Part shown: piece by piece, positions 45,617 to 50,400 of the stretch
How positions within the stretch are numbered: the first letter of the stretch is position 1
Layout of the letters: each line of letters starts with the position of its first letter
Origin: Promethearchaeota archaeon
Lineage (GTDB): Archaea; Asgardarchaeota; Lokiarchaeia; Sigyniarchaeales; SOKP01
Assembly (NCBI GenBank): GCA_048937405.1
Contig: JBHLNF010000001.1
Coordinates: 512,001-576,000 of the forward strand
Reading direction: 5' to 3'
DNA length: 64,000 bases
Translations under genes and position numbers: made by a program
Notes under the pieces: generated by a model
What the model was told of the DNA's origin: nothing
The model's database searches: none
What the model saw: the letters and a program-made list of their open reading frames with translations, nothing else

Positions 45617-46681
45617 TTATTTTTTAAGCAAGTTTATCAACTTTTTTACTATTAGATCCCCCATTTCTTTTGTAGTTAGTGTTTTAAAAGCACTATTCTC
45701 AATATCTATGGTTCTTCCTTCGTTAAGGGCTTCCTCCACAGATTTCTCAATTAAAAAACCTATTTCTGGAGAATTGAATGATTCTTGCAACATTAGCTTT
45801 ACACTTAGAATAGTGCCTATTGGATTAGCTATATTTTTTCCAGCAATATCAGGAGCCGAACCATGTATTGGTTCATACATAGATACATGTCCGGGATTTA
45901 TGTTTCCACTGGCGGCCATTCCTAAACTACCAATCAGAAAAGCACCTTCATCACTAGTAATATCACCAAACATATTGCCTGTAACTACTGTTTCGTAAGA
46001 ATAAGGAGCACGAATTAACCATTGACAAAAAGCATCAATATAAACATCCTCTTTCTCTAAATCGGGATAATCTTCACCAATTTTATGAAAGATATTACGC
46101 CAAAATTGACTTGCTTTTATAACATTTGCTTTATCAACAGAAGTAATTTTTTTATGACCATTCTTCTTTGCAAATTCACAAGCATATCGCATAATTCGTT
46201 CACACCCTTTTTTTGTATAAAACATTACACTTTCTGCGCTCTCATCTGATATTTCTCCGATTCCTTTATATATTCCCTCTGTATTTTCTCTAATAATAGT
46301 GAAATCAATACCTTTTCCTATAAATTCATCTCTAAGTGGACATCTATCACGTAGAGGATAATATAACTTGATTGGCCTCATATTCACGTATAGGTCTAAA
46401 TCTTGCCTTATCTTTAAGATTGCAGATTCAGCAATTCCGGGGGGTAAATCAGGAAGTCCAATAGCACCAAATAATAAAGCATCAGAATTTTTAATAATTT
46501 CAAATGTCTTTTTTGGAAGGCTTTCACCACAATCTTTCCAAACTTTACCTCCAGCTGGAGCGTTTATAAATTCAAAATCAAAATCACTATATTCAGAAAT
46601 AACTTTTAGAATCTTTATCCCTTCTTCTACTACTTCTAATCCACATCCATCACCATGAGTGACTGCAATTTCTTTTTTCAT
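45617..46681 (-). CDS. leuB: 3-isopropylmalate dehydrogenase
   Basis: GDGCGLEV, RENTEG, NMFGDITSD and EPIHGSAPDIAG motifs; operon context. Confidence 0.92.
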   Translation of the reverse strand: MKKEIAVTHGDGCGLEVVEEGIKILKVISEYSDFDFEFINAPAGGKVWKDCGESLPKKTFEIIKNSDALLFGAIGLPDLPPGIAESAILKIRQDLDLYVNMRPIKLYYPLRDRCPLRDEFIGKGIDFTIIRENTEGIYKGIGEISDESAESVMFYTKKGCERIMRYACEFAKKNGHKKITSVDKANVIKASQFWRNIFHKIGEDYPDLEKEDVYIDAFCQWLIRAPYSYETVVTGNMFGDITSDEGAFLIGSLGMAASGNINPGHVSMYEPIHGSAPDIAGKNIANPIGTILSVKLMLQESFNSPEIGFLIEKSVEEALNEGRTIDIENSAFKTLTTKEMGDLIVKKLINLLKK

Positions 46682-47199
46682 TATGATCCCTCTTCTGAAT
46701 TGGTAATTTGTTCTCTTGCAAAATTTATTAGACCTTGTGCTTTAATTATTTTCTGTAAAAAAGCTGGAAATTTGCTAAAGGAATATGATTTGCTAGTGGT
46801 TATATTTTCTATAATTCCGTTCCCAAAGTCAATATTTAGTAGATCTCCATTATTAAAAGCATCGATGTCAGAAAACCGAAGAATTGGAAGTCCAATATTA
46901 ATGGCATTTCTGAAAAATATACGTGCAAAACTGGGAGCGATAATTAATTCTATTCCCGAAGCTTTTAAAGCAATTGGTGCTTGTTCTCGGCTTGAACCAC
47001 AACCAAAATTTGAGCCTGAGACGAGAATTGTTGCCTGAAGATTATCTTTATTCTTATGAAACTCCCCATCTAAATCTTCCATGCAATGCTCAGCTAAAAA
47101 CTGAGGATTTATGTCTACTAAGTATCGAGCAGGGATTATTAAATCTGTATTGATATTTTCTTGAGCATATTTAATTACTTTTCCTTTTATTTCTATCAC
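46681..47199 (-). CDS. leuD: 3-isopropylmalate dehydratase small subunit
   Basis: INTDLIIPARYL, NFGCGSSREQA and FARIFFRN motifs; start may be ATA 47190. Confidence 0.93.
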   Translation of the reverse strand: MIEIKGKVIKYAQENINTDLIIPARYLVDINPQFLAEHCMEDLDGEFHKNKDNLQATILVSGSNFGCGSSREQAPIALKASGIELIIAPSFARIFFRNAINIGLPILRFSDIDAFNNGDLLNIDFGNGIIENITTSKSYSFSKFPAFLQKIIKAQGLINFAREQITNSEEGS

Positions 47200-47215
47200 C
47201 TTTTATATTTTACCT

Positions 47216-48487
47216 TTATATACTTTCTGGAGATATAATAAACCCTTTTAAAGCGGAAGATGCAGCAATCACTGGATTTGATAAATAGACTTCGCTTTCG
47301 GTGTGTCCCATCCTTCCCATAAAATTTCTATTTGTTGTTGATATTGCTCTTTCACCAGGAGCAAGGATTCCCATATGTCCTCCTAAACATGGTCCACATG
47401 TGGGTGGAGAAACAACCGCTCCAGCTTTAAGAAAAATTTCGATTAATCCTTCTTTAAGAGCATGAAGTTGAATGGTAGGAGTCCCTGGAATAATAATGCA
47501 TCTCACATTTGGATGGACCTTGTTGTTTTTCATTATTTTTGCTGCTAACCGTAGATCTTCCATTCGTCCATTGGTACAAGAACCTATTACCGCTTGGTCG
47601 ATTTCAATATGTAAATCTTGTACTTCAGATATAGGTTTTGTATTGCTTGGTAAGTGTGGAAGAGCTATTTGAGGTTCAATATTACTACAATCAATCTCAA
47701 TACTATCATGATATTTCACATTATTATCATCATATGTTTTAAATTTTGAAATTCCTACACTTTTCATATATTGTTCAGTAATTTTATCTGGAAAAATGAA
47801 TCCTGTTTTTGCTCCAGCTTCTATCGCCATATTACACATAGTAAAACGGTTTGTCATAGAAAAGTTGTTGATAATTTCTCCTGTAAACTCCATAACCTTA
47901 TATGTTGCCCCATCAACCCCAATTTTACCAATGGTATACAAAATTAAATCTTTACCAGAAACCCATTTATTCAACTGACCAGTATATATGAATCTCAAGG
48001 TTTCAGGTACTTGTAACCAACATTTTCCAAGAGCCATGGCTACACCTAGATCAGTCGAGCCAACACCCGTAGAAAAGGCTCCTAATGCCCCATATGTACA
48101 AGTATGAGAATCAGCACCAATAATTAACTCACTTGGAGCAACTAAACCCTGTTCGGGAATAAGACAATGTTCAATGCCTACTTTTCCTATTTCAAAATAG
48201 TGTTGAATGTGGTATTTCTTTGCAAAATCTTTTAAAATTTTGCACTGTATTGCCGAAGCAATATCCTTATTTGGTGTAAAATGATCTGGTGTAATTATTA
48301 TCTTGCTCGGATCGAAAACACTTCTTTCAGTTCCTTCAATAACTTTTTCGAAAACTTCTATAGCTTTTGGTGCAGTTATATCATTACCTAAACATTTATC
48401 GATATTTACTAAAACAAAATCTCCAGCAGAAATGTCCTTTTGATCACAATGATCTCTTATAATTTTTTCACTAATTGTTAGATCCAT
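47216..48487 (-). CDS. leuC: 3-isopropylmalate dehydratase large subunit
   Basis: GADSHTCT, IGSCTNGR, CGPCLGGH and NRNFMGRMG motifs. Confidence 0.94.
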   Translation of the reverse strand: MDLTISEKIIRDHCDQKDISAGDFVLVNIDKCLGNDITAPKAIEVFEKVIEGTERSVFDPSKIIITPDHFTPNKDIASAIQCKILKDFAKKYHIQHYFEIGKVGIEHCLIPEQGLVAPSELIIGADSHTCTYGALGAFSTGVGSTDLGVAMALGKCWLQVPETLRFIYTGQLNKWVSGKDLILYTIGKIGVDGATYKVMEFTGEIINNFSMTNRFTMCNMAIEAGAKTGFIFPDKITEQYMKSVGISKFKTYDDNNVKYHDSIEIDCSNIEPQIALPHLPSNTKPISEVQDLHIEIDQAVIGSCTNGRMEDLRLAAKIMKNNKVHPNVRCIIIPGTPTIQLHALKEGLIEIFLKAGAVVSPPTCGPCLGGHMGILAPGERAISTTNRNFMGRMGHTESEVYLSNPVIAASSALKGFIISPESI

Positions 48488-48527
48488 AGTTATAATAATT
48501 TTTTTTTTAAATTGAAATTAATTGATT

Positions 48528-50144
48528 TTATGACTGGCTTTTTTTCTTAACAATTAGGTTCAATCCTTTTATCAACGATAAAACAGAGCACATAACAATA
48601 TCTTCATGAATCGCACTAGCTTTAACCACTGTATTAGTTTCAACATCCATGATTTCAAGAGTAACATGCCCTAATGCCTCAGTCCCCCCTGTAATAGCAT
48701 CAATTTGAAAATTTAAAAGCACTATCTTACTCATCGGTTTAAAGCATTTAACAATTGCTTTACAGGAGGCATCTACAGGTCCTACTCCCGTTGCTGATGC
48801 TACTTTTTGCATTATATCTCCATTATTTTTGATGTTTAGTCGAACTGTTGATGTAGGTGTAACTGATCCAGTTAAAACAGTTAACTCCTCAAGCGTTACA
48901 AATTGTTCTTCTTTTGGTATTTCACCCATAACATCTTTCACAATAGCTAAGAAATCCTCTTCAGAAACTTCATGCCCCTTATCACCAAGACTTTTTACAT
49001 GTTCTCTTATTTTCATAAATTGTTCATCATTGGTCTTAATACCTAAGTCATCAATCTTAGCTTTAAGAGCATGACCACCTGTGTGTTTTCCAAGTTTTAT
49101 TGATTGCTTGATTATTGCTTCCACGTCGTCAGTACGGTGAATTCCTATTAATTCTGGAGTAATTGGTTCATATGTTCGTGCATGTTGTATCATTGCATGA
49201 GCATGGATACCTGCTTCATGAGCAAACGCATTCTGACCTATTAGTGGTTGCAATCGTCCGATCCTAACTTTTCCACCACAATAACTCTCAATTAATTTGG
49301 CTGTGGGAAAAATTTTTGTTGTTTTAATATTCATAGGGATCTGGTATAAAGCATAAAGAGACATACAAGTTTCTTCAAAAGATGCATTTCCTGCTCGTTC
49401 ACCCAATCCTAAAATAGTTGTTTGAGCTTCTGAAGCACCATTTTCAAACGCAGCGACAGTATTTGCAACAGCAAGGCCAAAATCATTATGACAATGGGCT
49501 GCAATACGAATATTTTTAGGTAAAGCTTCATGATTCTTCCGAATAATATATCCAAAAGCTACTGGAGATATTGTACCTACAGTGTCAGGTATATTTATTC
49601 GTGTGGCTCCGCTATCAATAGCAGTTAAATTAGCTTTAATTAAAAAGTCTAAATCTGATCTAGTAGCATCCTCTGCTGAAAATAAAACTATAGAATAATG
49701 TTCTTTAGCATAAGAGACAGTTTCTCTTATTCGTTCTATAACTTCATCTTTGGATAATTGAAGTTTTTCTCTCATATGTAATTCTGAAGTGGCGCAAAAT
49801 AAATGTATACTATCCATATCAGCCTCGATAACTTTATCTATATCGGGTTTCGCTGTTCTAGCTAAACCCATCACTTCAGAATCCAAACCCATTTTTGCAA
49901 TATCTCTACAAGCATCAAAATCACCTGGAGATGTTATAGGAAAACCCGCTTCTATAATATCAATTCCCAAATCATTAAGAGCTTGAGCAATAGATAGCTT
50001 TTCTTTATGAGTAAAACTTATACCTGGAGTTTGTTCCCCATCACGGAGTGTTGTATCAAAAAAGTATGCTCTCTCAGGAAGGATAAGTGATCCTCTAATT
50101 TTTTCCATCATGTCGGAAACAGCAATATCGTTTTTATTTACCAT
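48528..50144 (-). CDS. leuA: 2-isopropylmalate synthase with C-terminal regulatory domain
   Basis: DTTLRDGEQ, HCHNDFG, GERAGN and GVGPVDA motifs; heads leuCDB; Leu-rich leader supports the leucine pathway. Confidence 0.9.
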   Translation of the reverse strand: MVNKNDIAVSDMMEKIRGSLILPERAYFFDTTLRDGEQTPGISFTHKEKLSIAQALNDLGIDIIEAGFPITSPGDFDACRDIAKMGLDSEVMGLARTAKPDIDKVIEADMDSIHLFCATSELHMREKLQLSKDEVIERIRETVSYAKEHYSIVLFSAEDATRSDLDFLIKANLTAIDSGATRINIPDTVGTISPVAFGYIIRKNHEALPKNIRIAAHCHNDFGLAVANTVAAFENGASEAQTTILGLGERAGNASFEETCMSLYALYQIPMNIKTTKIFPTAKLIESYCGGKVRIGRLQPLIGQNAFAHEAGIHAHAMIQHARTYEPITPELIGIHRTDDVEAIIKQSIKLGKHTGGHALKAKIDDLGIKTNDEQFMKIREHVKSLGDKGHEVSEEDFLAIVKDVMGEIPKEEQFVTLEELTVLTGSVTPTSTVRLNIKNNGDIMQKVASATGVGPVDASCKAIVKCFKPMSKIVLLNFQIDAITGGTEALGHVTLEIMDVETNTVVKASAIHEDIVMCSVLSLIKGLNLIVKKKSQS

Positions 50145-50180
50145 GTTTTTAACCTTTTATAATTTTATTTAAAATACATA

Positions 50181-50228
50181 GCCCTTATGCTTTCAAGAAG
50201 AAAAATTCGCTCTAGAAAGAATTAGGGC
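50181..50228 (-). promoter_or_regulatory. leu leader hairpin (candidate attenuator element)
   Basis: GCCCTAATTCTTTCTAGAGCGAA pairs imperfectly with TTCTTCTTGAAAGCATAAGGGC; starts 3 nt after the leader stop; followed by TATGTATTTT. Confidence 0.7.
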
Positions 50229-50231
50229 GCT

Positions 50232-50333
50232 TTATAATAATAAGAGTAATAACAAACTCAATAATTCTAAAGGAAATAAACCTCTCAAACTTATTTTATT
50301 ATTAGAAATAAGTAGACTTTGAGTAGCTTTCAT
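50232..50333 (-). CDS. leu operon leader peptide (33 aa, 14 Leu)
   Basis: MKATQSLLISNNKISLRGLFPLELLSLLLLLLL-stop; AGGA SD-like motif upstream; 87 nt before leuA. Confidence 0.82.
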   Translation of the reverse strand: MKATQSLLISNNKISLRGLFPLELLSLLLLLLL

Positions 50334-50384: not shown

Positions 50385-50400
50385 CTTATAAATTTTTCTC
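50385..50400 (-). promoter_or_regulatory. BRE-TATA promoter of the leu leader/operon
   Basis: GAGAAAAA-TTTATAAG on the minus strand, about 50 nt upstream of the leader ATG. Confidence 0.6.

Follow-up and report, generated by a model that had tools for sequence, protein, structure and literature searches.

A hairpin at the leader stop codon as candidate ribosome-position sensor of a leucine leader-peptide attenuator upstream of leuACDB in Promethearchaeota

The window (the whole stretch of DNA that was analyzed, 64,000 nt) comes from a Promethearchaeota (Loki-type Asgard) archaeon with a genome of 4.47 Mb and a GC content of 28.9%. It carries a leuA-leuC-leuD-leuB operon, and based on the NCBIfam assignments the operon encodes 2-isopropylmalate synthase, the large and small subunits of isopropylmalate dehydratase, and 3-isopropylmalate dehydrogenase. 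All features of the leader module lie on the minus strand, as does the leuA ATG at 50144, and they are as follows:

45617..50144, minus strand: leuA-leuC-leuD-leuB operon, the regulated genes (NCBIfam)
50145..50180, minus strand: A-rich spacer of 36 nt with the leuA Shine-Dalgarno (SD) sequence AGGT at 50155..50152 (from the sequence)
50181..50228, minus strand: post-stop hairpin comprising an inner helix and two arms, the 5' one rich in pyrimidines and the 3' one purine-rich and SD-like (from folding and orthologs)
50195..50205, minus strand: U-rich tract (TTTTTCTTCTT) in the apical part of the hairpin, present in the window and its closest relatives
50232..50333, minus strand: leader ORF (33 codons and a stop codon; 14 of the codons are for Leu), putatively translated (ORF call)
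50235..50255, minus strand: terminal seven Leu codons (TTG TTA TTA CTC TTA TTA TTA), the presumed sensing codons (from the sequence)
50386..50400, minus strand: putative BRE/TATA promoter of the leader-leu transcript (GAGAAAAA + TTTATAA), read from the sequence

The leader stop codon is TAA (50234..50232), and the leader ends 87 nt before leuA. The TATA-like box stands ∼50 nt upstream of the leader ATG, at a distance that is similar in the orthologs. An internal promoter may also lie in the spacer; TATA-like AT-rich words are present there, but their distance to the ATG varies among the orthologs and the conserved AGGT SD follows. The host genome encodes TBP and an ortholog of the termination factor FttA/aCPSF1 (G000:C16:29825-31705; TIGR03675 match of 882.8 bits against a cut-off of 580.2), and no 16S rRNA gene was found in its assembly (estimated completeness 100%). 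A second, distant leuA/cimA-like paralog lies at G000:C20:77463-79040.

To place the leader among its relatives, genomes of the same order were used: a leuA ortholog was present in 73 of 153, and 68 upstream regions were usable. An ATG-initiated ORF with a terminal Leu run was found in 59 of these 68 regions, so that the leader ORF by which bacterial attenuators are recognized, here putatively translated and with seven terminal Leu codons among its 33, is present as a family. The distance from the leader stop to leuA was 87-102 nt in most orthologs. The Leu run comprised 3-8 codons, in which TTA, CTT, CTC, TTG and CTA were mixed, and the final residue was Leu in 52 of the 59 leaders. Within the last 8 residues Leu accounted for 79%, Ile, Val, Phe and Met jointly for 2.7%, and the substitutes were polar; together with the mixed codon usage, these values suggest that selection acts on the Leu codons rather than on the hydrophobicity of the peptide. 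The element was also found in a closed genome of the same order (L085; 6,035,313 bp), which carries both leader and hairpin. A leader ORF of this kind was absent upstream of the leuA genes of Hadarchaeota and methanogens, and an exact look-up of the leader peptide among public gene calls returned no record. In a scan of the host genome for codon runs at the C-terminus with a hairpin behind them, the Leu leader ranked top and no comparable hit came after it, and a relaxed version of the scan gave Trp and His candidates amid many low-complexity false positives.

Several further observations were made on the leader loci. An apparent second helix lies within the leader ORF (window 50260-50325, minus strand, and orthologs L005-L010), with compensatory changes seen by eye, as in CTTCAA...TTGAAG, GCTTC...GAAGC and ACACTTC...GAAGTGT, and a small helix just upstream of the Leu run was likewise seen by eye in the window and orthologs. 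The MAGs at L125, L134, L142, L145, L152 and L156 have near-identical leuA loci and leaders and are titled Odin-, Hermod-, Hod- or Thorarchaeota; these labels look unreliable, as their closest relatives are titled Promethearchaeota.

The hairpin begins directly behind the leader. Three nucleotides (AGC) separate the stop codon from the stem, and GCCCT (50228..50224) closes against AGGGC (50185..50181). The sequence-only reading had placed the stem at these positions and with this closure, and had named TTCTTTCT (50221..50214), the apical tract TTTTTCTTCTT and TATGTATTTT (50180..50171); all of this agreed with the sequence. The minimum free energy (MFE) structure of the window copy is imperfect, with 19 pairs over 48 nt. 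It folded at −17.9 kcal/mol in a 96-nt context (z −1.63; 13 of 200 shuffles equal or better) and at −17.4 in a 75-nt window (z −2.0), whereas 60-nt intergenic stretches of the host typically fold at about −4 kcal/mol. Taken alone, the window copy is thus only weakly better than chance.

Comparison of the orthologs gave a far clearer result. Each of the 59 leaders had one hairpin, 44-67 nt long and beginning −3 to +6 nt relative to the last nucleotide of the stop codon, with a mean MFE of −20 and a mean z of −3.3 (below −2 in 45 of 59), and 48 distinct outer stems were found among the 59, which are related to one another, so that such counts overstate independence. The sense strand was more stable than the antisense strand (−19.0 vs −15.1 kcal/mol; 49 of 59; p 2e-8), and G-U pairs, nearly always with U on the 5' arm, made up 11.6% of all pairs. 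In a within-genus alignment with the structure set by hand, 83% of the cells were paired, as compared with 49-64% for slid controls, and none of 500 shuffles matched the observed pairing or covariation score. Covariation in orthologous leaders, which the sequence-only reading had proposed as a check, was therefore found. Based on the position in the orthologs, the z values, the distinct stems, the covariation and the strand bias, comparative evidence shows that the hairpin is a real RNA structure.

The route to this result was per-sequence folding with shuffles. RNAalifold found no structure on the MAFFT alignment of 56 sequences (A1), and on the genus alignment (A2) it chose only a local 5-bp helix, a:b; MAFFT misaligned the 3' arm, for which reason the structure was supplied by hand. 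A covariance model (R1) scored the genus sense hairpins at 50-93 bits, was weak on distant ones and mixed in antisense matches, and the alignment A3 was left out of the counts on this account. A search of Rfam (E up to 10) returned only an unrelated sRNA model, far below its gathering score, and no match to Leu_leader RF00512. When the hairpins were anchored on the stem, a strict order of blocks was observed: a 5' arm with 85-95% pyrimidines, then blocks with 80-88% purines and 80-93% pyrimidines, and a 3' arm with 86-95% purines. Bacterial attenuators switch among mutually exclusive 1:2, 2:3 and 3:4 pairings; the block order seen here would permit a:b together with c:d in place of the nested hairpin. 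The distance from the end of the hairpin to the leuA ATG was 32-44 nt in 54 of the 59 orthologs, and an AGG in the spacer was nearly invariant in A1.

Leaders with other codon runs were found in the same lineage. On the contig of the window, ∼152 kb further downstream, a His leader (L093; G000:C7:728389-729693) stands in front of a PRA-CH/PRA-PH (hisIE-like) gene; it ends in ...SYLHHWLHHE and is followed at 0 nt by a hairpin with an 11-bp stem and then by a small hairpin abutting a GGGGG SD. His leaders were found in 14 genomes, with endings such as HHWLHHE or HHHQHHK, covarying stems, a hairpin start −3 to +1 nt from the stop, a mean z of −4.5 and a distance of 37-42 nt from hairpin to ATG, and they thus share the geometry of the Leu module. 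Trp-rich leader ORFs (MANEKIIPFRWHWFWRA and MATVRNFCWQWPWRWR) precede trpD (L090; G000:C11:1149-2603) and a 471-aa PALP enzyme, possibly TrpB-like (L089; G000:C7:22178-23943), respectively, in the host genome. These leaders (W-x-W-x-W) have a GC-rich hairpin in which the last codons form the 5' arm and the stop lies in the loop, with T-rich tracts downstream, and the trpD leader was kept in ∼12 relatives wherever trpD heads the operon. In addition, a CTP synthase gene (L087; G000:C2:16272-18353) is preceded at 153 nt by a small ORF of low complexity that is rich in Met and Thr (MSMASMMNMMTMMMT...), and this ORF may be a repeat artefact or another leader.

The response of the Leu hairpin to the position of a ribosome was modeled by constraint folding, with the ribosome covering −15 to +11 nt around the A-site codon (a footprint taken from bacteria and eukaryotes) and with the mean probability of the six basal pairs over the 59 orthologs as readout. 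The predicted probability was 0.87 in the absence of a ribosome and 0.83-0.85 with the A-site at least 9 nt before the stop; it fell to 0.63 with the A-site at −6, to 0.18 on the last sense codon and to 0.02 on the stop codon. The geometry assumed by the sequence-only reading, in which the stem survives a stall in the Leu run and melts when the leader is completed, is thus reproduced by the model, and the base of the stem is placed, according to these predictions, so that completion of the leader alone would open the hairpin.

What the opening would expose was analyzed in the same way. With the ribosome on the stop codon, the purine-rich 3' arm was freed (unpaired probability from 0.14 to 0.45), and the inner pyrimidine block was still paired (0.26 vs 0.29). 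When an FttA-sized window was applied (nt −36 to −15 behind the active site; PMC11616081), the accessible RNA differed between the stalled and the stop state only with the polymerase 10-25 nt past the hairpin; the difference was ∼4-5 nt, mostly purines, and the accessible U rose by less than 1.

These results bear on the effector proposed by the sequence-only reading, in which U-tracts in the arms are exposed by a ribosome at the stop and cause archaeal U-tract/FttA termination, and in which the closed hairpin masks them. In favor of the proposal are the T5 and CTTCTT in the apical part of the hairpin in the window and its closest relatives, the FttA ortholog of the host, the preference of FttA for single-stranded U-rich RNA across nt −1 to −36 (PMC11616081), and the ends of host genes, where T5 or longer was present in 55% of the +1 to +60 windows, as compared with 29% upstream of starts. 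Among the 59 hairpins, however, T runs of 5 or more occurred in only 15, the longest T run had no fixed place (5' third in 24, middle in 20, 3' third in 15), and the T fraction of the interior was 0.40 against a background of 0.35-0.38. Neither a U-tract (∼5 or more U) nor U-rich single-stranded RNA was found as a shared feature 15-36 nt behind the polymerase in the 59 orthologs, and no conserved U-tract was present in or after the hairpin. Moreover, the 3' arm would not yet have been transcribed with the polymerase at the loop U-tract, and the hairpin therefore could not mask intrinsic termination there. Taken with the persistent pairing of the pyrimidine block and the gain of less than one accessible U, these observations make exposed U-tracts quite unlikely as the effector. 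Of the inverted logic put forward with them, the sign was retained (stall, closed hairpin, read-through) and the masked U-tracts were not.

A bacterial-type intrinsic terminator, in which the hairpin with the tail TATGTATTTT would terminate when formed, had been named as the alternative, and a T4 does stand 6 nt after the hairpin in the window. The tail was not conserved, and the spacer was A-rich and T-poor (54% A and 28% T, as compared with 45% and 35% in the background), and only 4 of 59 spacers had a T run of at least 5. A terminator scan of the region called no GC-rich hairpin with a U run on the sense strand, and the ends of host genes showed T runs with no enrichment of hairpins. Such a terminator would also turn the operon off under Leu starvation, and it is regarded as highly improbable. 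The host thus appears to use archaeal-type terminators, and the gap between leader and leuA seems, from its sequence, to be devoid of one: it shares with archaeal U-tract/FttA terminators only the encoded factor and a host whose gene ends carry T runs, and it differs from them in that a conserved U-tract is missing and T is depleted in its single-stranded part. A single terminator-like site was called in the region, on the antisense strand (window 50208-50229, plus strand), where the 5' arm can form a small alternative helix, CGCCC..GAGCG. Inspection by eye of the spacer and the first leuA codons gave no 3:4-type partner for the freed 3' arm. The effector is probably neither an intrinsic terminator nor an exposed U-tract.

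The freed 3' arm resembles an SD sequence. The 16S genes of relatives end in GGAUCACCUCC, and when the 3' arm was paired with the 16S tail of the lineage (GAUCACCUCC), a mean of −5.5 kcal/mol was obtained, as compared with −4.1 for the true leuA SD and −1.1 for control sites; binding was stronger than that of the true SD in 40 of 59. In a decoy SD switch, the freed arm, ∼25 nt upstream of the weaker leuA SD, would divert the 30S subunit and delay initiation at leuA, and the uncoupled polymerase would be terminated by FttA-type polarity; the closed hairpin, an internal mimic of the SD:anti-SD duplex, would leave the true SD alone on offer. The SD-like arm, which is all that a ribosome at the stop releases, and the strict pyrimidine 5' arm/purine 3' arm pattern suggest such a switch, and a similar resemblance to an SD, the GGGGG of hisI, is seen at the base of the His hairpins (UUCC/GGAA, UCCC/GGGG). 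The resemblance may nevertheless have arisen as a by-product: a purine arm rich in G will look SD-like in any case, and compensatory changes that pass through G-U intermediates keep the purine/pyrimidine orientation automatically, with no need for selection. In the window itself, the 3' arm (−3.1) was weaker than the true SD (−3.8), and no conserved start codon follows the decoy. The decoy is accordingly viewed as doubtful, and we know of no precedent for it; if true, it would be a new kind of ribosome-read switch in the prokaryotes most closely related to eukaryotes, where the Leu and the His operon would both use it.

The leuA SD itself was also examined, given that in attenuators of the ermC or mycobacterial polyCys uORF type the leader or hairpin sequesters the SD unless a ribosome stalls, here in the Leu run. 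The layout resembles that of the leaderless mycobacterial uORF Ms5788A, in which a homopolymeric Cys codon tract at the 3'-end senses charged tRNA with no terminator involved (10.1101/834739), and the accessibility of the SD rose slightly with a stalled ribosome (0.48 to 0.58, p 0.001). The unpaired probability of the SD was, however, nearly the same with the native and the shuffled leader (0.48 vs 0.45), the stalled and the stop states did not differ (0.58 vs 0.54), and the SD almost never paired with the hairpin. The energy of pairing of the Leu-run region with the leuA RBS (−6.9) was comparable with that for the RBSs of other genes (−6.7) and for shuffled sequences (−7.4), so that the Asgard leader shows no pairing above chance of the kind by which the Cys tract of Ms5788A binds its downstream SD. 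An RBS sequestered and then freed by a stalled ribosome was thus not found by thermodynamic modeling, and masking of this type is very unlikely.

The hairpin was closed in most of the modeled states, which would also suit a constitutive element (a 5' stabilizer, a re-initiation insulator or an anti-backtracking structure), with the stalled ribosome as the sole source of any Leu response, for example through a block to 5'-3' decay. Ribosome-dependent stabilization of mRNA is established for ermC in Bacillus and provides a precedent. A constitutive element would, however, leave unexplained why the base of the stem lies within −3 to +6 nt of the stop in 59 Leu and 14 His leaders, and why the distance to the start codon is fixed at ∼37 nt; it is considered unlikely.

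Our preferred reading, to which we assign a probability of about 0.5, is that the hairpin is the ribosome-position sensor of a Leu leader-peptide attenuator in which the closed state is the ON state of leuACDB, conserved across this order of Promethearchaeota. According to this reading, the stem base, which abuts or includes the leader stop, would be closed with no ribosome nearby or with one stalled at least three codons upstream in the Leu run, and the hairpin would be pulled open only by a ribosome at the stop or at the final one or two codons. The operon would then be ON when Leu is scarce and the hairpin closed, and OFF when Leu is plentiful and the hairpin is opened by the leader-completing ribosome. 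The sign of this logic is probably correct, given that the operon is biosynthetic and only closed = ON gives sensible regulation. The choice would be made co-transcriptionally, as RNA polymerase crosses the 36-nt A-rich gap before leuA: opening would free the purine-rich 3' arm and remove structure behind the polymerase. In the least certain step, the untranslated, uncoupled transcription complex could then be terminated prematurely by a factor (polarity of the FttA/aCPSF1 type) before leuA is loaded with a ribosome. Compared with the 5' regions of other genes, the spacer contains less T and fewer T runs, which fits avoidance of FttA, given the preference of this factor for single-stranded U-rich RNA. 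Candidates for the output are factor-dependent premature termination of the uncoupled polymerase, the decoy SD and RNA stability. The hairpin can re-close after the ribosome departs, and an OFF signal of this kind would therefore be transient and would need kinetic coupling. Since the His leaders repeat the geometry and the lineage also has related Trp leaders, its amino-acid operons probably use the mechanism in general.

The arrangement was compared with known systems. It is similar to the enterobacterial attenuators leuL (Rfam Leu_leader RF00512), hisL, trpL, thrL and pheL in that codons for the amino acid of the pathway form a run in a short leader ORF directly upstream of the operon, and in that the RNA structure depends on the position of the ribosome. 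In trpL of E. coli the stop codon stands just before segment 2 of the 2:3 antiterminator, and the Asgard hairpin likewise sits just past the leader stop. Unlike that of enterobacterial leuL, the host is an archaeon with an archaeal RNA polymerase, and the element has neither a 3:4 terminator hairpin nor a U-run after any helix nor an Rfam match; its Leu codons form the extreme C-terminal end of the leader, and between leader and A-rich spacer there is one long hairpin. The tnaC-tnaA system of E. coli resembles the proposed model in its factor-dependent termination, its untranslated spacer and the lack of an intrinsic terminator, the outcome being set by whether the ribosome is parked or released at the leader end. 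In tna the parked ribosome masks the factor entry site by the stop, whereas the ribosome stalled in the Leu run would be positioned mostly short of the post-stop sequence, and the hairpin would do the masking. FttA is regarded as a functional analogue of Rho (PMC11616081).

The sensing half of the element, a codon run with a ribosome-controlled hairpin, is therefore bacterial in style, and the output half cannot be, because it has no terminator. Ribosome-mediated leader-peptide attenuation is textbook bacterial biology, archaea terminate transcription by U-tracts and FttA rather than by hairpin terminators, and a full-text search of the literature gave no described archaeal case of leader-peptide attenuation. 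Based on the modeling, the hairpin is likely the switch of a type of amino-acid sensor for which all cases described to date are bacterial, and it offers a conserved, mutable element for asking how Asgard archaea couple translation and transcription and control premature termination.
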